DNA of 64,000 bases from a virus. Positions 10,653 through 63,876 of the stretch are shown here, in pieces (positions within the stretch are counted from its first letter, which is position 1; each line of letters begins with the position of its first letter). Both the position numbers and the translations under genes were made by a program. The notes under the pieces are model-generated. The model did no database searches. It saw nothing but the letters and a program-made list of their open reading frames with translations, and had not been told where the DNA came from. The stretch is taken from IMG/VR virus record IMGVR_UViG_3300043410_001242; one strand, 5' to 3'.

Positions 10653-11513
10653 ATGATACTCGTTGATCTCAATCAAGTTCTACTGTCTGGCTTGATGGCA
10701 CAAATCTCAGGACAGAAAAAAGTCAACTATAATGAGGATCTTATTAGACATATGATCCTGAACATTCTCAGAAATCACATTAAGACGTTTAAATCTGATT
10801 ACGGCGAAGTTATTCTATGTTGTGATAACAGAAAGTATTGGAGGAAAGAATATTTTCCTTTCTACAAGGCTCACAGAAAAAAGAATCGTGAAAAATCAGA
10901 CCTTGACTGGCATCTTATCTTTGATATGCTGGCCAAGTTTAAAGACGAACTAAAAGAAAACTTTCCGTATAAGGTAATTGATGTTGAAGGCGCAGAGGCT
11001 GATGATATTATTGGTACTCTTGTTCCTAGACACATCATGCATGAAAATATTGTAATTATTTCTAGTGACGGTGACTTCCTACAGTTGCAGAGATACAACA
11101 ATCAAAATTATACTGTCAAACAATATAATCCTGCACAAAAGAAGTATATCACATCAGAAAATCCGGTTTCTGAACTTAAACAGAAAATCATTCAAGGAGA
11201 TAAGGGTGACGGTATTCCTAACATACTCTCTCCTAGCGACTGTTTTGTTCGTGAAGTCAGACAAAAACCTATCACTAAGGGTAATTTGACAAAATTGTTG
11301 TCTGAAGACTTCTCTAATTGCAGTAATGACTATATCAAAGCTGGTTTTCTTCGTAATCAAACTTTGATTGACCTCTCGTTTATTCCTACAGAAATAAAGC
11401 AGAGAATCATAAATAGTTACGACGAGTTTAAGCCAGCACCTAAACAGAAACTTTTTAATTATTTTGTCGAAAAGAAATTGATGAATCTAATTGATAGTAT
11501 TGGTGATTATTAA
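10653..11513 (+). CDS. rnh: T4-like RNase H (5'-3' exonuclease)
   Basis: MILVD, YKAHR, EADDIIG, SSDGDFLQL, GDKGDGIPN. Confidence 0.93.
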   Translation: MILVDLNQVLLSGLMAQISGQKKVNYNEDLIRHMILNILRNHIKTFKSDYGEVILCCDNRKYWRKEYFPFYKAHRKKNREKSDLDWHLIFDMLAKFKDELKENFPYKVIDVEGAEADDIIGTLVPRHIMHENIVIISSDGDFLQLQRYNNQNYTVKQYNPAQKKYITSENPVSELKQKIIQGDKGDGIPNILSPSDCFVREVRQKPITKGNLTKLLSEDFSNCSNDYIKAGFLRNQTLIDLSFIPTEIKQRIINSYDEFKPAPKQKLFNYFVEKKLMNLIDSIGDY

Positions 11514-11935
11514 TGAAAAATATCTATGAGGTGTTTGATGAATTCGAACAAGCAAACACAAAGAAACAAAAAATTCAAACGATAGAGAAAAACCTATCAA
11601 AAGCACTCTACGAGGTGCTTCTATTCACTTTCCATCCAGACTATGAATGGAAAGTCAGTGAATTCCCAGAAGAATATCGAATACCTGATACAAAACCAGG
11701 AATCTCTTATTGTCAAATCGGTACAGAACTAAGAAGAATGTATCTTTTTAGAAAAAATGACATCACAGCTGAAACTTTGAGTGATCGCAAGAGAAAAGAA
11801 CTCTTAATCCAGTTTCTAGAGTCTCTGGAACCAAGAGAGGCAGAAGTTGTTATGGGTATTTTTAAAAAAGATCAAGGAGTTAATGGACTAACTTATGAAT
11901 TTGTCAAGGAATGTTTCCCTGACATGTTACCTTAA
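11513..11935 (+). CDS. conserved T4-like hypothetical protein
   Basis: FLESLEPREAE motif; coupled to rnh. Confidence 0.6.
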   Translation: MKNIYEVFDEFEQANTKKQKIQTIEKNLSKALYEVLLFTFHPDYEWKVSEFPEEYRIPDTKPGISYCQIGTELRRMYLFRKNDITAETLSDRKRKELLIQFLESLEPREAEVVMGIFKKDQGVNGLTYEFVKECFPDMLP

Positions 11936-20500: not shown

Positions 20501-21172
20501 ATGGATATATCATTAACAGTTATTAGAAAGATAGCCAAAGAGAATGGTCTATCTGTTAATAATAATATACTGGCATTTGCACAAGGTATATCCAATCATG
20601 TATCGGGTAAGATTGAAACTGATATTAAGAAAAAGGTGGCGCGGGATATTGTTGAGATGCTCGGTACTAATGTTACTACCTCTGGTGGTACTGTTAAGGT
20701 TAAGTTTCGGAATGATTTGAGTTTTGATGATGTACGGGCATTATTTGATTATGATGGTGTGAATGGTGGTTTAGTATGGAAGAAGGACGGTAAACCTGCC
20801 GGTTCTGTTGAGCATCATGGTTATATTCGTATTGGTGTAAGAGGGAAAACATATAGGGCACACCATTTGGTATGGTTATGGCATCACGGTGTATTTCCTG
20901 ATACTATTGTGGACCATATTAATCAGATCAAGAATGATAATAGGATTGAGAATCTTCGGTTATCTGACCCGACTCTGAATAACCTTAATCGGACGACCGG
21001 TTCCAATAACACCTCTGGATATAAGGGTGTATCATATCTCAAGAAACGGAACAAGTATGAGGCATCCATTACAGTCAAAGGGAAAATGCACCGGTTAGGT
21101 CAATTCAATACCTTTGAGGAGGCCAAGTATGCACGAATGGCATATGAGGAAGAATTGTTGAACGGTGGTTAG
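20501..21172 (+). CDS. HNH endonuclease with AP2 domain
   Basis: YRAHHLVW, VDHIN..KNDNRIENLR, NNTSGYKGV, LGQFNTFEEA. Confidence 0.85.
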   Translation: MDISLTVIRKIAKENGLSVNNNILAFAQGISNHVSGKIETDIKKKVARDIVEMLGTNVTTSGGTVKVKFRNDLSFDDVRALFDYDGVNGGLVWKKDGKPAGSVEHHGYIRIGVRGKTYRAHHLVWLWHHGVFPDTIVDHINQIKNDNRIENLRLSDPTLNNLNRTTGSNNTSGYKGVSYLKKRNKYEASITVKGKMHRLGQFNTFEEAKYARMAYEEELLNGG

Positions 21173-27809: not shown

Positions 27810-28373
27810 ATGGACTGGAATAATAAAGAACAAGTCAGAGAGTATAACAGACAGTATAGAAAAGAGTGGGAAAAATCACCAAAAGCTATTGAATATCGTA
27901 AAAAGAGAAATGAATTAAAAAAAGAACAAAGAAGATTAGATAAATTAAACAGACCATCTAAAGAGAAAAAGATTATTGATCCTCTTATTAAAAAAGAAAA
28001 GGATCGAATAAAATTTGAAAAGTATTATTGCACCACAAAAGGTCGTGCGGCACATATGCTTGATAATGCAAGAGCTCGAGCCACTAAAAAGAATATTCAA
28101 ATCACTATAACCCAAGATTGGATACAGGAGAAACTCGATAATGGTATCTGTGAAGTATCTGGTTTACCTTTGAATTTTAGTATAAATGGTGGTAAGGGAC
28201 ATAAAGAAAATTCATTTGCTCCATCTATTGATAGAATTAACCAAACTGGTGATTATACACCAGAGAATTGTCGATTAACTTGTTGGATTTTTAATAGAGC
28301 ACGGGGTGCATTCCCTGATGATGATTTTGATATATTACTTGAAGCGTTAATTGAAAGGAAAAAGAATGTCTGA
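27810..28373 (+). CDS. putative HNH-like endonuclease
   Basis: CEVSG...PSIDRIN...Y...NCRLTC; CTAAATA late-like promoter upstream. Confidence 0.65.
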   Translation: MDWNNKEQVREYNRQYRKEWEKSPKAIEYRKKRNELKKEQRRLDKLNRPSKEKKIIDPLIKKEKDRIKFEKYYCTTKGRAAHMLDNARARATKKNIQITITQDWIQEKLDNGICEVSGLPLNFSINGGKGHKENSFAPSIDRINQTGDYTPENCRLTCWIFNRARGAFPDDDFDILLEALIERKKNV

Positions 28374-50600: not shown

Positions 50601-51353
50601 ATGTTTTTCTTTTTTAAGAAAAAGCCAGTATATCTGGATTGTTTTACTACACACACAGGAGCCTTTCACGCTCCTGTGGATTATTCATATAGGTTTTATC
50701 CTGATTGGTGGAAACTACTGGAAAAAACTGTTACAGATGAGGAATATGGAGATTTAGGTGTAGAAAATCCCACAATGAAGAATTGTGTGGGTTTTATAGA
50801 TTTTTTCAAAAATTCTATAACTGTACCGATGTGGAGTGACTTCTCATTACGTTTAGGAACAAAATACAGGCCTGGATATAACTGGAAATTTGCAGATGAC
50901 TTTTCACGAATAGAAGTGCATAAACCTATGCAATGGGGTTCATTTTTTCCAGAAAACAAATATCTTCATGGAAAATTTGTTAGTCCATGGAAATTCAAAT
51001 GTAAAGAAAACATATACTTTCAAAAATGTGGACCTTTTTATAACATTCTCAATCCACACCTTATTATGTTTCCCCCAGGTTTACTTGAGTTCAAGTATCA
51101 AGCCGCAGTTAATGTTAATTTTCTTTTAGTGCCACAAAACGAAGAATGTAATATGTTTATGAAGTATTATGATCCTTTGGTGCATTTTACTCCTCTTACA
51201 GAAAGGCCAGTTAAACTGAAAATACATCTTGTTTCACATGAAGAATACGAGAAGATTGGACTAACATTTGTTTCGTTTAATAGAAATTATTATAAAATGA
51301 AAAGGGCATCAAAGAATAGTAGTGTTTGCCCGTTTACACACCCTAATAGGTAA
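50601..51353 (+). CDS. hypothetical protein
   Basis: AGGAG RBS; 250 aa aromatic-rich. Confidence 0.6.
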   Translation: MFFFFKKKPVYLDCFTTHTGAFHAPVDYSYRFYPDWWKLLEKTVTDEEYGDLGVENPTMKNCVGFIDFFKNSITVPMWSDFSLRLGTKYRPGYNWKFADDFSRIEVHKPMQWGSFFPENKYLHGKFVSPWKFKCKENIYFQKCGPFYNILNPHLIMFPPGLLEFKYQAAVNVNFLLVPQNEECNMFMKYYDPLVHFTPLTERPVKLKIHLVSHEEYEKIGLTFVSFNRNYYKMKRASKNSSVCPFTHPNR

Positions 51354-51357
51354 TATT

Positions 51358-51600
51358 ATGACAGAAGATGAAAAGTTGAATTTTAAGGAATTACTCAAGA
51401 GTAATGTTGTAGAAGTTGAATTCACCAAGTTAAATGGTGAACAAAGAGTAATGAATTGCACTTTGATGGAATCATATCTACCACAGACGGATTCAACAAA
51501 AAGCAAGAACCAAGACAATTCTTTGGCCGTTTGGGACATTGATAAGAATGGTTGGAGGAGTTTTAGATATGAAAACATTACGTCCTTTGGTCTAAAATAA
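51358..51600 (+). CDS. SH3/WYL-like small phage protein
   Basis: VEFTKLNGEQRVMNCTL...VWDIDKNGWRSFR. Confidence 0.7.
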   Translation: MTEDEKLNFKELLKSNVVEVEFTKLNGEQRVMNCTLMESYLPQTDSTKSKNQDNSLAVWDIDKNGWRSFRYENITSFGLK

Positions 51601-51603
51601 ATC

Positions 51604-51644
51604 TTGACAAAATTACTCAAGAATAGTATAATCCAGTATAAATA
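51604..51644 (+). promoter_or_regulatory. tandem sigma70 and T4-late promoters of pmoC
   Basis: TTGACA-17-TATAAT (51604-51632) then TATAAATA (51637-51644). Confidence 0.8.
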
Positions 51645-51731: not shown

Positions 51732-52508
51732 ATGTCAGCTATTAGTGCAAATGCTGTTAGAGAGGAAGCACCAGTCTTGAATAAGGCTTGGTTGTCTTTC
51801 GCGTTTGGTTTGTATTTCGTATTCTATCTATGGGTACGTTGGTATGAAGGTGTATATGGTTGGTCCGCAGGACTTGATTCATTCGCACCTGAGTTTGAAA
51901 CCTATTGGATGAATTTCTTATATACAGAAATTGTCCTAGAAGTCACAACCGCAAGTATTCTTTGGGGTTATCTTTGGAAGTCAAGAGATCGTGATCTTGC
52001 CAATATTACACCAAGAGAAGAACTTCGCCGTAATATGACACACCTTGTATGGTTATTTGCTTATGCAAATGCAATCTACTGGGGTGCATCATACTTTACT
52101 GAACAAGATGGTACTTGGCATCAGACTATCGTAAGAGATACTGATTTTACTCCAAGTCATATCATTGAGTTCTATCTTACATACCCAATCTACATTATTA
52201 CTGGGTTTGCTGCATTCCTTTATGCAAAGACAAGACTTCCTTACTTCGCACAAGGACTTAGCCTTCCATACTTGGTAACTGTTGTAGGACCATTTATGAT
52301 CCTTCCAAATGTTGGTCTTAATGAATGGGGACACACCTTCTGGTTTATGGAGGAACTTTTTGTCGCCCCTTTACATTATGGTTTCGTGTTCTTTGGTTGG
52401 CTTGCTTTGGCTATTGCGGGTGTATTGCTACAGGTCTTCTCATCTTTTGCTGGTTTAATCGGCGATCAGATTGTTGAGTCTGTTGATAAGGGTTTGATTG
52501 CAAAGTAA
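51732..52508 (+). CDS. pmoC: particulate methane monooxygenase subunit C
   Basis: WSAGLDSFAPEFETYWMN, EQDGTWHQTIVRDTDFTPSH, NVGLNEWGHTFWFMEELFVAPLH, C-terminal GLIAK. Confidence 0.97.
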   Translation: MSAISANAVREEAPVLNKAWLSFAFGLYFVFYLWVRWYEGVYGWSAGLDSFAPEFETYWMNFLYTEIVLEVTTASILWGYLWKSRDRDLANITPREELRRNMTHLVWLFAYANAIYWGASYFTEQDGTWHQTIVRDTDFTPSHIIEFYLTYPIYIITGFAAFLYAKTRLPYFAQGLSLPYLVTVVGPFMILPNVGLNEWGHTFWFMEELFVAPLHYGFVFFGWLALAIAGVLLQVFSSFAGLIGDQIVESVDKGLIAK

Positions 52509-52527: not shown

Positions 52528-52555
52528 CAAAGGGGAACTTCGGTTCCCCTTTTTT
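52528..52555 (+). terminator. intrinsic terminator after pmoC
   Basis: AGGGGAAC-TTCG-GTTCCCCT plus T run. Confidence 0.9.
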
Positions 52556-52562
52556 ATTGCAA

Positions 52563-52618
52563 TTTTAATGGAATCTTAATATAACTGTAATACTCCGGTA
52601 ACATTCCTGTGATAAAAT
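52563..52618 (+). promoter_or_regulatory. Pho-box-like 11-bp direct repeats with -10
   Basis: TTTTAAT, TCTTAAT, CTGTAAT, CGGTAAC, CTGTGAT at 11-bp period; TAAAAT 10 nt after the CTGTAAT-N4-CGGTAAC pair. Confidence 0.55.
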
Positions 52619-52649: not shown

Positions 52650-53366
52650 ATGAAGAAATGGTTACTTTTAGTTCTTATTCTTATATCACATTCTGTATTC
52701 GCGAATGGAGAAGGTTCTGAACAATTATTTGGACAATGGACACAGTTTGCAGCTTACGGTAATTTTGGTAACAAAAGTCCTTGGATTTGGTGGACTGATG
52801 TTGCAGTAAGAAGTTCTCAGAATCATAAAGCAAAAGACGGAACACAAGGTTATGACGTTGGTTCTATTCCAACTCATAGCGCAGTAGGATACCAATTTGA
52901 TCCATCCAATTCTTTGATGTTGGGTTATACATATCAGTATAGTCAACCACCATACGCAAAGAAATCAACCAATGAAAATCGTATCTATCAACAATTTCAA
53001 AACTCTTTAGATTGGAAAGAAAACGGTAAACTAACAAACAGAACTAGATATGAACAGAGATGGGTTACATATTCCAGTGAAATGGCTCAAAGGTTGAGAC
53101 ACCAAGTTAAGTTTCAATATCCTATCAATAAAGACTGGGGATTCGTAATTAGTGATGAATTGTTTCTAAATATTAATAGTGTAAACTGGGGACCAAAGGC
53201 TGGATTTGACCAGAATAGAGTGTTTATTGGACCCGTTTACAATATAGATGACAGACAGAGAGTAGAGTTTGGTTACATGAATAACTATGTAAACAAAGAC
53301 TTAAAATCAGATCTAGATAATGATGTGTTAGTTATTAACTATTATTACAATTTTACAGATTATTAG
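52650..53366 (+). CDS. DUF2490-like outer-membrane beta-barrel protein
   Basis: Signal peptide; ENRIYQQ, RTRYEQR, RLR, DELF, GFDQNRVFIG, EFGYMN. Confidence 0.8.
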   Translation: MKKWLLLVLILISHSVFANGEGSEQLFGQWTQFAAYGNFGNKSPWIWWTDVAVRSSQNHKAKDGTQGYDVGSIPTHSAVGYQFDPSNSLMLGYTYQYSQPPYAKKSTNENRIYQQFQNSLDWKENGKLTNRTRYEQRWVTYSSEMAQRLRHQVKFQYPINKDWGFVISDELFLNINSVNWGPKAGFDQNRVFIGPVYNIDDRQRVEFGYMNNYVNKDLKSDLDNDVLVINYYYNFTDY

Positions 53367-53374
53367 GAGGAATT

Positions 53375-53446
53375 ATGTGGGAAAAACCTTCATTTAAAGA
53401 CATTCGTTTGGGATTTGAAGTAACTACCTATATCTACAATAGATAA
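53375..53446 (+). CDS. pqqA: pyrroloquinoline quinone precursor peptide PqqA (not in ORF track)
   Basis: AGGAGG RBS; MWEKPSFKDIRLGFEVTTYIYNR with W.KP...D.R.GFEVT.Y..NR and E-X3-Y core. Confidence 0.93.
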   Translation: MWEKPSFKDIRLGFEVTTYIYNR

Positions 53447-53447
53447 C

Positions 53448-53476
53448 TTGACAAAACATTCTTATTGTGATACAAT
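53448..53476 (+). promoter_or_regulatory. sigma70-type promoter
   Basis: TTGACA-17-TACAAT with TG extension. Confidence 0.75.
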
Positions 53477-53501: not shown

Positions 53502-53822
53502 ATGGCAAAGCATAAGTTTGTTGTAATTAAAGGCAGAAACCTTTTTGTAGGAATTCATGGGTTACAGTATGAGATTTTTGATACTGTAACCTTTGAATGC
53601 AAGGAAGAACAAGTCACAGACTTACAACGGAAGTACGTCTATCGTAAACTACATACAGTAGACAACAAAAGTAATCCACTTTCTTTTCGCAGAAAAGTGT
53701 ATTGTCGTAGGCGTCATATTCTAAAACATGACGGGTCTATCTTTGCAGATAGAATCAAATTATTTGACCATGAAGATGGAACATATTACGGGTTTATTCC
53801 TGTAGAGTGTTTTAAATTCTAA
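53502..53822 (+). CDS. hypothetical protein
   Basis: GGAG RBS before ATG 53502. Confidence 0.55.
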   Translation: MAKHKFVVIKGRNLFVGIHGLQYEIFDTVTFECKEEQVTDLQRKYVYRKLHTVDNKSNPLSFRRKVYCRRRHILKHDGSIFADRIKLFDHEDGTYYGFIPVECFKF

Positions 53823-54328: not shown

Positions 54329-54358
54329 GTGTCATACATTATGAGTTAAGTGATTGTT

Positions 54359-54730
54359 ATGAATCTTGAATCGTTTTTTGAAACTTCCACTCCACAGGAC
54401 CTTGGTCAGTTCCTGACTCAATCGAAACAGGAATTAAAGGCCAAGGTCCAATCTAAAATTCGCCAGCGCAGATCACAAATGTTGGTGCATTCATATATCT
54501 ATTATGTTCTAGACGATAATATCGTTTCTGATGACAAATGGCAACAATGGGCTAATGAATTGCGTGATATACAAAAGGAATATCCGGAGTATTGCAAAAT
54601 CAATTTCTTTGATAGAGAATTCTCAACATGGAACGGTGATTCCGGTGCCTTTCTGCCGTTAAAAGATCCATACGTTATTCGCAAAGCGAATTACATTTAT
54701 AATCTGGTGAAAAATGAAGAAAACAAATAA
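54359..54730 (+). CDS. protein resembling N-terminal domain Ia of NAD-dependent DNA ligase
   Basis: HSYIYYVLDDNIVSDDKW...EL...YPE. Confidence 0.6.
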   Translation: MNLESFFETSTPQDLGQFLTQSKQELKAKVQSKIRQRRSQMLVHSYIYYVLDDNIVSDDKWQQWANELRDIQKEYPEYCKINFFDREFSTWNGDSGAFLPLKDPYVIRKANYIYNLVKNEENK

Positions 54731-56597: not shown

Positions 56598-57239
56598 ATG
56601 AAAGTCTATTTGTCCAATTATCGTAACCATTGGTTATCACCTTATCACATTCTGGAAAAGGTATTGTTCTGGAAAGATTGGGAAAATATTGATTACGATG
56701 AACCTTGGGTTGATAAATGGTCAGATAGACTTGAACCATCATGTATTAAATTACAGAAGGTATTGGATTTTATTCATCCTCGCATCACTTATGTGAAGAT
56801 TGATAAGTATGATACATGGGACATGGATAAAACTCTGTCTCCTATTATTCTTCCTATGTTGAAACAATTGAAGGCAACCAAACATGGTGCGCCTATGGTA
56901 TCTGATGATGATGTACCAGAAGAATTAAAAAGCACTTCTGCACTACCTAAAGAAAATGAATGGGATACTGATAGCAATCATTTCAGACGATGGGATTATG
57001 TCATAGGTGAAATGATTTGGGCTTTTGAACAATTAGTTGATGAGAATTGGGAAGACCAATATTACACAGGAGAAAGTGATTATATTTTCGTCAAATCGGA
57101 TGAATATGGTTTGATGGTTATGGAGAAAGGTCCAAAACACACTCAAGAATGGGATCGTGAAGGTTGGACAAATCACCATAAACGCATAGATAATGGATTG
57201 AGGTTGTTTGGTACTTACTATAGAGGACTATGGTCGTAA
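56598..57239 (+). CDS. conserved phage hypothetical protein, C-terminus altered by endonuclease insertion
   Basis: DTWDMD.TL..IILPMLKQL...LFGTYYRGLW. Confidence 0.7.
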   Translation: MKVYLSNYRNHWLSPYHILEKVLFWKDWENIDYDEPWVDKWSDRLEPSCIKLQKVLDFIHPRITYVKIDKYDTWDMDKTLSPIILPMLKQLKATKHGAPMVSDDDVPEELKSTSALPKENEWDTDSNHFRRWDYVIGEMIWAFEQLVDENWEDQYYTGESDYIFVKSDEYGLMVMEKGPKHTQEWDREGWTNHHKRIDNGLRLFGTYYRGLWS

Positions 57240-57860
57240 TTTACATTTATCAAAGTGCCATCTTTTCATATTTGTTAATTGACCAACTTTACCACAATGA
57301 GGACAATCAACTTTAGTTGTATTATTTTGATGACATTTCAGATTTTTCTTATGATTTTCACTCATTGGTTTTGATACACCTCTAGTTGTTAATGATATTT
57401 TTCTTTTGGTTTCCTCTGAAAGTTTTGGTATTGGTGTTATGCCTGATTTAAAATTTATTACCCTAGATTCGGTTCTTTTTCTTATATGTTCTTTAGTTTG
57501 GGGTTTTGGTTTTCCTTTAGTTTTTATTGATTGTTTAAGTCTTTCTTCTGATGTTCTTACTCTACCAAAACAACCATCACCACCAAAAGTTGAATTATAA
57601 CCATTATGGAATGAATCATATTCATTAATGAAATAATTTTCCATTTCTTTTAATGTGTGATCCTTATCTGTTGATTGATATATGATTTCCCAAATAAAAT
57701 TATCCCAACCATATTTCCTTATGGCACGATAAAATTTACAATCTTGATTTTTGGATGCGGATTTATGAATTCTTTGACGATTGGGATAATTGGAATCAAA
57801 TCCAATATACACTTTATTGTTTATGGTATTTCTGGCACTATAGATGGTATAAATATTCAT
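57228..57860 (-). CDS. free-standing GIY-YIG homing endonuclease
   Basis: IYSARNTINNKVYIG, AIRKYG, GYNSTFGGDG, NUMOD3-like SEETKRKIS, CPHCGK. Confidence 0.85.
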   Translation of the reverse strand: MNIYTIYSARNTINNKVYIGFDSNYPNRQRIHKSASKNQDCKFYRAIRKYGWDNFIWEIIYQSTDKDHTLKEMENYFINEYDSFHNGYNSTFGGDGCFGRVRTSEERLKQSIKTKGKPKPQTKEHIRKRTESRVINFKSGITPIPKLSEETKRKISLTTRGVSKPMSENHKKNLKCHQNNTTKVDCPHCGKVGQLTNMKRWHFDKCKLRP

Positions 57861-61207: not shown

Positions 61208-61909
61208 ATGGCAACAAAGAAAAGGACCGCGGCCGAAGAAGCACAAAAACAACACTTTTCAATTAGAAACATACAACCATTAACAGAGAATCAAGAGAGA
61301 GCGTTTCAAGCATATTTTAACGGTAAACACATAGCCTTAACTGGTTCAGCAGGAACTGGTAAATCATTTCTTGCAATGTATTTGGCATTAAAGGAAATTA
61401 TTAAAGAAAATGGTCAAGGTTATAATAGGTTAATTATCGTAAGGTCGGCAGTTCCGACAAGAGACTTGGGTTTTGTGCCTGGTACACTAGAAGAAAAGTC
61501 TAAGATATATCAAGATCCTTATAAAAATATAGCTAATGAATTAATTGGGAGAGGCGATGCGTGGCATTTTCTTATTAACAAAGAGATTATCGAATTTCAG
61601 ACAACTTCTTTCTTACGTGGTCTTACTTTCAATGATTGTATCATTATCTTTGATGAGTTTCAGTCTGCTACATTTCATGAAATAGATACTGTACTAACTC
61701 GTATAGGTGAGAATTGCAGATTCATTCTTTGCGGTGACTTTAACCAGAATGATTTGAGTATTAAGAGAGAGAAATCTGGATTTGAAACTGCTTTAAATAT
61801 ATTGAAAAATATGGAAGATGTTGAAGAAATCAGATTTACTATATCTGATGTTGTTAGGTCTGGTTTCGTTAAAAATTATTTACATGAAAAAGAGAGACAA
61901 GGATTATAA
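61208..61909 (+). CDS. phoH: PhoH-family ATPase
   Basis: GSAGTGKS, GFVPGTLEEK, FLRGLTF, DEFQ, TRIGEN, GDFNQND, DVVRSG. Confidence 0.92.
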   Translation: MATKKRTAAEEAQKQHFSIRNIQPLTENQERAFQAYFNGKHIALTGSAGTGKSFLAMYLALKEIIKENGQGYNRLIIVRSAVPTRDLGFVPGTLEEKSKIYQDPYKNIANELIGRGDAWHFLINKEIIEFQTTSFLRGLTFNDCIIIFDEFQSATFHEIDTVLTRIGENCRFILCGDFNQNDLSIKREKSGFETALNILKNMEDVEEIRFTISDVVRSGFVKNYLHEKERQGL

Positions 61910-62884: not shown

Positions 62885-62913
62885 TTGACAAAAGGAGAGG
62901 AATGATATATAAT
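62885..62913 (+). promoter_or_regulatory. sigma70-type promoter of tmRNA
   Basis: TTGACA-17-TATAAT with TG extension. Confidence 0.85.
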
Positions 62914-62917
62914 ACAA

Positions 62918-63242
62918 GGATTCGTTGATGTTGACAAAATAGGTCACCTTGGACGGGAGTTCGACTCTCCCCACCTCCACCAAAAGCACATTGGGCACCC
63001 TGGTTAACGATAACACCTGAACCCAATCTTAATCATTGTAACAGTGTGCTTCTGATGGGGGTGTATTGGTTTTCGACAGGGGATAGTAAAGGTCAACGGA
63101 GAATCGGCAAAGCTAAAGTCGTTAGGATTGGGAGTTCCCGGTCAAAGAGGCAAATTAAATTAAACGCAAACGATGACGTTTATTCTTACGCACTAGCTGC
63201 TTAAGCGGGGTTTGGGGGTTCCTTGTCAAATAATACCCCCTC
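62918..63242 (+). ncRNA. ssrA: circularly permuted (two-piece) tmRNA
   Basis: T-arm and CACCTCCACCA ending 62982 come before 5' GGGGGTG at 63057 (G3.U70 pair); tag ANDDVYSYALAA* at 63166-63204. Confidence 0.92.
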
Positions 63243-63258
63243 TAATTTTGAGGGTGAC

Positions 63259-63876
63259 ATGAGTTTTTCTGAAGATGGTTTTGAAGTAGTAAGATCCTTC
63301 ATAAATCCACAAACAATGAATCTATTGAAGCACGAATATCATACACTACTGGACTTATTGTTTGAAAATCAAACATATAGTGAACAATCTATCAAGTTTC
63401 CAACAGGAGAAGTACTGACCTGTTTCAATTGGTATTCTCCAGTATTCACTGAATCTCTGTCCAAGTTATTGCAAAATAAAGTAGAAGAAATTGTAGAAAA
63501 GAAATTAGTTCCAACATACAGTATGGTGAGAACCTATAAAACTGGAGATGAATTATATAAACACAGAGACAGGCCGAGTTGTCAATACTCTGTTACTATG
63601 CCAATATTGACATCTATTAATTGGCCTATATACATAACTGATAGAAAAAATGTTAACAGAAAAGTATACCTAAACGAAGGTGATATGCTTGTTTATGATG
63701 GTTTTCTGGAACATTGGAGAGAAAAATATGAAGGTGAAAAACACACACAATGCTTCCTACATTGGGTTGACGTTAATGGAAAATATAAATACCTAAAATA
63801 TGACGGAAGAGCCAATTTAGCTCTACCAATGGTGAAAATAACAGAAGAAAATGAAGCTTTCTTCAACAAACACTAA
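63259..63876 (+). CDS. 2OG-Fe(II) oxygenase
   Basis: PTYS..R.Y..GD.L.KHRDRPSC.YS, EHWRE, Q.FLHWV. Confidence 0.8.
   Translation: MSFSEDGFEVVRSFINPQTMNLLKHEYHTLLDLLFENQTYSEQSIKFPTGEVLTCFNWYSPVFTESLSKLLQNKVEEIVEKKLVPTYSMVRTYKTGDELYKHRDRPSCQYSVTMPILTSINWPIYITDRKNVNRKVYLNEGDMLVYDGFLEHWREKYEGEKHTQCFLHWVDVNGKYKYLKYDGRANLALPMVKITEENEAFFNKH

Follow-up and report, generated by a model that had tools for sequence, protein, structure and literature searches.

Does the short open reading frame that follows a viral pmoC gene in this DNA encode a genuine PqqA, and, if so, why would a phage carry it? PQQ is the cofactor of methanol dehydrogenase (MxaFI/XoxF). The leader of PqqA is the part recognised by PqqD, and the Glu-X3-Tyr pair is cross-linked to form PQQ, the peptide being consumed one-for-one. 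The stretch analysed here, 64 kb in length and hereafter called the window, comes from a low-GC T4-like phage (~36% GC) with nearly all genes on one strand.

A preliminary description had placed a 23-codon frame with an AGGAGG ribosome-binding site at positions 53375-53446, and both the position and the translation proved exact. The frame encodes MWEKPSFKDIRLGFEVTTYIYNR followed by a stop.

53375..53446, (+): pqqA, 23-codon PQQ precursor peptide gene (translation, PqqA profiles, pattern search)
53365..53370, (+): Shine-Dalgarno AGGAGG of pqqA, 4 nt 5' of the ATG (read from the sequence)

The peptide had been described as showing the PqqA pattern, and the profile searches bore this out. It matched PF08042 with 42.4 bits (E = 6e-11, profile positions 1-19 of 19, cut-off 21.1) and TIGR02107 with 42.2 bits (E = 5e-11, profile positions 1-21 of 21, cut-off 20), about twice the cut-off of each model. 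The cross-link pair is present as Glu15-Val-Thr-Thr-Tyr19; the Glu and the Tyr were invariant in the 8 pmoC-phage, 189 other viral and 75 cellular PqqA copies. The leader motif W-x-K/T-P ... D/E-x-R-x-G is also present, and the alignment to the cellular copies has no gaps. The back-translated degenerate pattern W-x-K-P-x5-R-x-G-F-E-V-T-x-Y had one match in the window and none in 100 shuffles. The AGGAGG shares bases with the TAG stop codon (53364-53366) that closes the DUF2490 gene upstream, and a GGAG-type site was found 5-9 nt upstream in every phage pqqA copy examined. As had been anticipated, gene callers miss the frame: a 13-kb JGI contig with the identical sequence has no gene called there. 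On the profile and motif matches, 53375-53446 is a genuine phage-borne pqqA.

The surroundings of the gene are laid out as follows.

51604..51632, (+): sigma-70-type consensus promoter 5' of pmoC, TTGACA-17-TATAAT, 12/12 match
51732..52508, (+): stand-alone pmoC (PmoC/AmoC; PF04896 406 bits, NF041641 401 bits)
52529..52552, (+): intrinsic terminator hairpin 3' of pmoC, 10-bp stem then T run
52563..52618, (+): candidate promoter of the DUF2490-pqqA unit, its function predicted from sequence
52650..53366, (+): DUF2490 predicted outer-membrane barrel gene (PF10677 143 bits)
53448..53476, (+): promoter of the next gene, TTGACA-17-TACAAT with TG, beginning 2 nt after the pqqA stop
53502..53822, (+): 106-aa phage gene with no assigned function, following pqqA; also in the viral records L010 and L014

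The PF04896 match to the window PmoC covers profile positions 5-243 of 245. The pqqA start lies 867 nt after the pmoC stop, in line with the ~0.9 kb given at first sight. When ORFs from the canonical pmoA/pmoB places in five host loci were used as queries, no pmoA/B-like ORF was found in the 64-kb window. In the window, pmoC is flanked by WYL_2 and DUF2490, the latter inserted between the pmoC terminator and pqqA. The WYL_2 Sm-like gene (51322-51600, (+)) sits directly 5' of the pmoC promoter and is likewise found upstream of pmoC in L010. The promoter at 53448..53476 sets the 3' limit of the pqqA unit, and L010 and L014 have an equivalent one overlapping the 3' end of pqqA.

We considered the 53502-53822 product as a PqqD-like chaperone and rejected this assignment: it had no Pfam or PHROG match, and its AF2 model (pLDDT 82.5), of beta-beta-alpha-beta-beta-beta topology, matched nothing in the PDB (best E = 0.06). 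Further downstream, a small stand-alone Nlig-Ia gene (the NAD+-binding N-terminal domain of DNA ligase; 96 bits) occupies 54350-54730 (+). A GIY-YIG endonuclease gene lies on the opposite strand (57228-57860, (-)) in an accessory region 4 kb downstream of pqqA, and HNH endonuclease and endonuclease VII-like genes are found at 20501-21172 (+) and 27810-28373 (+). Homing endonucleases could help to move neighbouring cargo.

The window carries phage genes assigned by PHROG (DNA primase, both RNR subunits, thymidylate synthase, exonuclease, endolysin, RNA ligase, endonuclease VII, and HNH and GIY-YIG homing endonucleases) and also encodes a phrog_459 peptidase, a CobS-like ATPase (phrog_249) and PhoH. 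A permuted tmRNA was located at 62919-63204 (+) (RF04321, 109.6 bits); ARAGORN placed it at 62889-63295, with the tag peptide ANDDVYSYALAA and a partial overlap with the mechanical ORF at 63223-63876. No INPHARED phage matched the window DNA or its PmoC protein.

The closest cellular PmoC proteins came from Methylococcaceae MAGs (84-91% identity), followed by those of Methylotetracoccus, Methylumidiphilus and Methylocaldum (~80%). The PqqA of these genomes has the form M(R/K)WEKPS(Y/F)NDMRFGFEVTMYIYNR. The window PqqA is identical at 18 of 22 residues to the best of 75 cellular Methylococcales PqqAs, and WEKPSF and YIYNR are common to the window peptide and the best Methylococcales PqqAs. PmoC and PqqA thus indicate one clade, with 81-91% for its closest cellular PmoC sequences, and the phage probably infects Methylococcaceae (type Ib) methanotrophs. 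Among the sampled Methylococcales genomes, 109 of 121 had pqqA, about one-fifth of those with two or three copies. In a Methylumidiphilus MAG, pqqA heads a canonical pqqABCDE cluster, in which all four other products scored above their NCBIfam cut-offs.

The remainder of the pathway is missing from the viral side. Host PqqB, C, D and E queries had no match in the six-frame translation of the window, nor in ~200 viral loci. The PqqE, PqqD and PqqC families were absent from four large phage records with pmoC and pqqA, the host MAG control being positive; one of the four, at 372 kb, is a complete genome bounded by terminal repeats. A reliance on host PqqB-E had been proposed, and its checkable part agrees with these data: pqqB-E were found neither in the window nor in the 372-kb relative, and candidate hosts have pqqABCDE.

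Some Methylococcales carry a second, orphan pqqA of the WEKPSFNDLRLGFEVTLYIYHR type in DNA of host GC (L382:22-5526, L380:6913-9682, L379, L381, L383). This cellular cluster has a DAHL-domain histidine kinase on one side and MauG-like di-haem cytochrome c peroxidases on the other, beyond which come a Metallophos protein and a SoxA-like cytochrome c.

Is the neighbourhood of pmoC and pqqA particular to this phage? Searching IMG/VR with PmoC gave 124 viral stretches, from which 80 loci were kept; pqqA was sought in the pmoC records by six-frame scans and full-record family searches. The six-frame search that the preliminary description had proposed found pqqA in other pmoC phages. It was present in 8 of 67 viral pmoC records and in 4 of the 12 of at least 100 kb, most pqqA-negative records being fragments <25% complete. 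The reverse search, starting from pqqA, added one further record, and both genes were found in 10 viral records, the window included. The two genes are 0.08-2.1 kb apart in five of these (the window, L008, L009, L010 and L014) and 26-71 kb apart in the other five (G007-G010 and G192). The close relatives L005 and L011-L013 had no pqqA. Nor did four near-complete pmoC phages with a distant PmoC (62-64% identity), so pqqA is not required for the pmoC-phage lifestyle.

Three arrangements were observed where the genes are close.

L014, L008 and L009: pmoC, terminator hairpin, ribosome-binding site, pqqA
Window: pmoC, terminator, DUF2490, pqqA
L010: pmoC, terminator, Metallophos phosphoesterase, GT4 glycosyltransferase, pqqA

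A hairpin equivalent to that of the window follows pmoC in L008, L009, L010 and L014. Of the "pmoC+pqqA module" first described, the core of pmoC plus pqqA is conserved, but the order pmoC-DUF2490-pqqA is not fixed, and the intervening cargo varies. The L008/L009 pair sits between homologues of the window genes 10653-11513 and 11513-11935, which abut in the window, ~40 kb from its pmoC; the bare pair of L014 occupies the window's own locus. The bare pmoC-terminator-pqqA pair is therefore found at two genomic sites in two related phage lineages. Fourfold-site identity between the window and L008/L009 was 54-57% for pmoC and 32-34% for the RNR genes; between phage and host pmoC it was 29-34%, a saturated value. 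These comparisons fit a transfer of the cassette after the backbones had diverged, and a codon-usage constraint on pmoC could contribute.

Host adjacency of pmoC and pqqA as the source of the phage pair was rejected, with pqqA within 5 kb of pmoC at none of 80 cellular loci. Since the two genes were never adjacent in the cellular genomes sampled, phages may have assembled the cassette. Our tentative suggestion, which we would not yet call the probable one, is that pmoC-pqqA is a phage-assembled two-gene cassette, moved as a unit and selected as a pair, and that the gap between the pmoC terminator and pqqA is a landing pad for cargo. The cargo would be DUF2490, or Metallophos plus GT4. Selection as a pair is proposed because pMMO and the PQQ-dependent methanol dehydrogenase would form a coupled redox system.

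We also observed that the pmoC of the 259-kb phage G007 is in two pieces (C1:15872-16847; model positions 3-42 and 42-243), with pqqA ~50 kb away. The split resembles the fragmented pmoC of TP6_1, BML_3 and BML_4 (PMC7674155).

In answer to the second question, we consider it likely that the window holds a genuine pqqA of a T4-like pmoC phage, probably one infecting Methylococcaceae, and that this gene feeds host PQQ synthesis as an auxiliary metabolic gene. The 23-residue PqqA would be translated from a phage transcript during infection. Host proteins would then take over, PqqD binding the phage peptide, PqqE joining Glu15 and Tyr19 by a cross-link, and PqqB/C plus a protease processing the cross-linked peptide into PQQ. 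The phage contribution to the pathway would be limited to its one-for-one consumed component. In this way the PQQ-dependent methanol dehydrogenase (MxaFI/XoxF) would be kept supplied with cofactor, and the phage PmoC would support pMMO, the preceding step. We infer the expression of pqqA, the processing by host enzymes and the benefit to the phage. A counterpoint to precursor supply is the question of what would be gained from extra PQQ if host MDH synthesis stops after infection.

The transcription of the window pqqA bears on a different explanation, in which peptide and chemistry are unchanged but DUF2490-pqqA is a stress-induced accessory operon, responding for instance to phosphate limitation, and its proximity to pmoC reflects a shared hotspot of accessory genes instead of support for two pathway steps. 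We regard this as unlikely, although several features of the window fit it. In all arrangements a terminator stands between pmoC and pqqA, and expressing pqqA therefore requires read-through or a promoter of its own; the window couples pqqA to DUF2490 and not to pmoC. The candidate for such a promoter in the window is a predicted one without a -35, made up of five heptamers in 11-nt phase (ttttaat, tcttaat, ctgtaat, cggtaac, ctgtgat) that end in an extended -10, TGaTAAAAT (52610-52618). Phased CTGTAAT-like heptamers with an extended -10, standing in for a -35, would suit a stress operon, as would the phoH gene at 61208-61909, the changing content of the pmoC-pqqA gap (nothing, DUF2490, or Metallophos plus GT4) and the five phages with the two genes 26-71 kb apart. 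Upstream of its DUF2490 homologue, G007 likewise has a CTGTAAT-N4-CTGTAAT repeat (CTGTAAT-aata-CTGTAAT, L303:1365-1382). Nevertheless, in L008, L009 and L014 pqqA directly follows pmoC, with neither DUF2490 nor the repeat array, and the occurrence of the bare pair at two different genomic sites also speaks against a mere hotspot. DUF2490 and pqqA are probably co-transcribed, and the window pqqA is probably transcribed from the DUF2490 unit; read-through of the pmoC terminator could be an alternative source. In its sequence the heptamer array resembles a PhoB/OmpR-type box array.

DUF2490 itself is a recurrent gene of T4-like freshwater phages. The phage relatives are 37-88% identical to the window copy and the host homologues 34-40%, and no PHROG family covers the phage DUF2490. 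The phage homologues adjoin homologues of gp45, gp44, RegA, gp59 and gp32. The following phage copies were located.

L305:8001-8684, DUF2490 phage copy
L307:3776-4477, DUF2490 phage copy
G007:84465-85148, DUF2490 phage copy
G009:67223-67903, DUF2490 phage copy

That DUF2490 and pqqA travel together was considered and rejected, because six other phage DUF2490 loci have no adjoining pqqA. Relatives with 50-88% identity to the window copy, from T4-like phage contexts, likewise adjoin no pqqA.

The phage peptides differ from the cellular ones at three positions. All eight pmoC-phage copies have Ile at position 9, where the 75 primary copies of cellular Methylococcales have Leu/Met; seven of the eight have Leu at position 11 in place of the cellular Phe; and position 17, inside the Glu-X3-Tyr segment, is Thr/Cys/Leu/Ala versus the cellular Met. 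The window peptide carries Ile9, Leu11 and Thr17. Given these differences, recognition by host PqqD/E is an assumption. Residues that the 75 primary copies lack might also point to a decoy or altered substrate of PqqD/PqqE that modulates or blocks host PQQ synthesis. Such a role appears very unlikely to us. The Glu, the Tyr and the entire W-x-K/T-P...D-x-R-x-G-F-E-V core are invariant, Leu11 and Leu17 occur in the natural second, orphan pqqA copies of some Methylococcales and in no other cellular copies, and Ile9 is common among other viral PqqAs. Moreover, blocking host energy metabolism would be at odds with carrying pmoC. From these comparisons we do not read the residues at positions 9, 11 and 17 as a sign of changed function. 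The use of Ile9 as a marker of common descent for the pmoC-phage pqqA was likewise weakened, with D-I-R present in 69 diverse viral PqqAs.

Could the gene be a hitchhiker with no function, left over from captured host DNA and open by virtue of its shortness? The ORF is just 72 nt long, the L009 copy has lost its stop, and L005 and L011-L013 are without the gene; even so, the pattern of substitutions makes this highly improbable. The eight diverged pmoC-phage copies all keep the start codon, the SD and the core residues. None of W, P, D, R, G, F, E, V and Y varies among them, yet their codons do (for example CGT/AGA/CGG/CGA for R, GGA/GGT/GGC/GGG for G); any two copies differ synonymously in 6-10 codons and nonsynonymously in 3-9. 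Such synonymous variation where the residue is fixed indicates purifying selection on the phage pqqA. In addition, the GC3 of the gene is fully ameliorated, and intact orphan pqqA is present in >120 other viral contigs. In L009 (6853-6981) the frame runs to 42 codons through the downstream terminator hairpin; its sister contig L008 has a normal 24-codon pqqA (2726-2800).

Finally, host DNA misassembled or mis-binned into the phage contig, which three host-type genes in a row (pmoC, DUF2490, pqqA) might bring to mind, is effectively excluded and in our view barely conceivable: GC3 is 0.32, 0.26 and 0.29 in pmoC, DUF2490 and pqqA, the same as in the phage backbone genes, against 0.60-0.81 in the closest cellular pmoC, and a 13-kb JGI metagenome contig is 100% identical over all junctions, from the CobS-like gene to past pqqA. 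The codon composition by itself rules out host contamination. Four other viral contigs from IMG/VR are syntenic with the window, pqqB-E do not follow pqqA, phage-type promoters and terminators lie on both sides of the genes, and cellular loci have 51-66% GC versus 30-38% for phage loci. Thus the phage location claimed for the gene withstood the check for misassembled host DNA, supported as it is by phage genes, the tmRNA and phage-like GC3.

Virus-encoded PqqA was reported in methylotroph phages of Lake Baikal by Coutinho et al. (2020, Microbiome 8:163; PMC7678222), and viral pqqA appeared again in a 2026 survey (PMC13188868). The Baikal phages (PMC7678222) share with the window an orphan phage pqqA, proposed there as an AMG that boosts PQQ for methanol dehydrogenase. 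They differ in their predicted Methylophilaceae hosts, in their peptide type (WTKPAATEMRFGFEVTMYVMNK) and in the reported partner gene, methanol dehydrogenase, whereas the window has a methanotrophic Methylococcales host clade, a peptide of the type WEKPSF...RLGFEVTTYIYNR and a pqqA linked to pmoC. Over 120 orphan pqqA ORFs were found in IMG/VR contigs, with no pqqB-E nearby.

The pmoC-phages described by Chen et al. (2020, Nat Microbiol 5:1504; PMC7674155) are large, low-GC, T4-related freshwater phages. The window agrees with them in its stand-alone pmoC without pmoA/B (within the 64 kb), and its type Ib gammaproteobacterial PmoC and ~170 kb size class also fit that group. The main text of that paper nowhere mentions PQQ or pqqA; its Table S7 contains, uncommented, a 36-aa PqqA family (fam2590) in the genome TP6_1 only. 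The paper describes neither the recurrence of pqqA nor its position next to pmoC.

Compared with cellular Methylococcales PqqA, the window peptide has the same length, Glu-X3-Tyr, W-E-K-P and YIYNR (18 of 22 residues). The primary cellular pqqA heads pqqABCDE in DNA of 51-66% GC, whereas the window copy is an orphan with a GC3 of 0.29. Cyanophage psbA (D1) is an auxiliary metabolic gene. By analogy, it may follow the same logic, a phage encoding only the rapidly consumed part of an energy-conserving machine of its host and leaving the rest to that host; it differs in belonging to another pathway and in encoding a protein subunit, not a cofactor precursor peptide.

Our literature search found no paper linking pqqA to pmoC. 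The preliminary description had known of no described pmoC+pqqA phage module; this appears to hold for the linkage but not for the parts, as phage PqqA had been published (PMC7678222) and the TP6_1 PqqA is listed in Table S7. What appears to be new here is the recurrent pmoC-pqqA linkage and its cassette behaviour, viral pqqA itself having been known since 2020.

The pmoC-phages are the main example of viruses possibly influencing aerobic methane oxidation. Among the larger viral pmoC records that were searched, about one-third have pqqA as well, often next to pmoC. Standard gene calling systematically misses pqqA, and in consequence AMG surveys undercount what viruses contribute to C1 metabolism. 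Our reading predicts that the phage pqqA would complement a pqqA mutant and that PQQ synthesis would go on during infection. The combination of pmoC and pqqA suggests that these phages may act on two consecutive steps of methane oxidation, and not on one.
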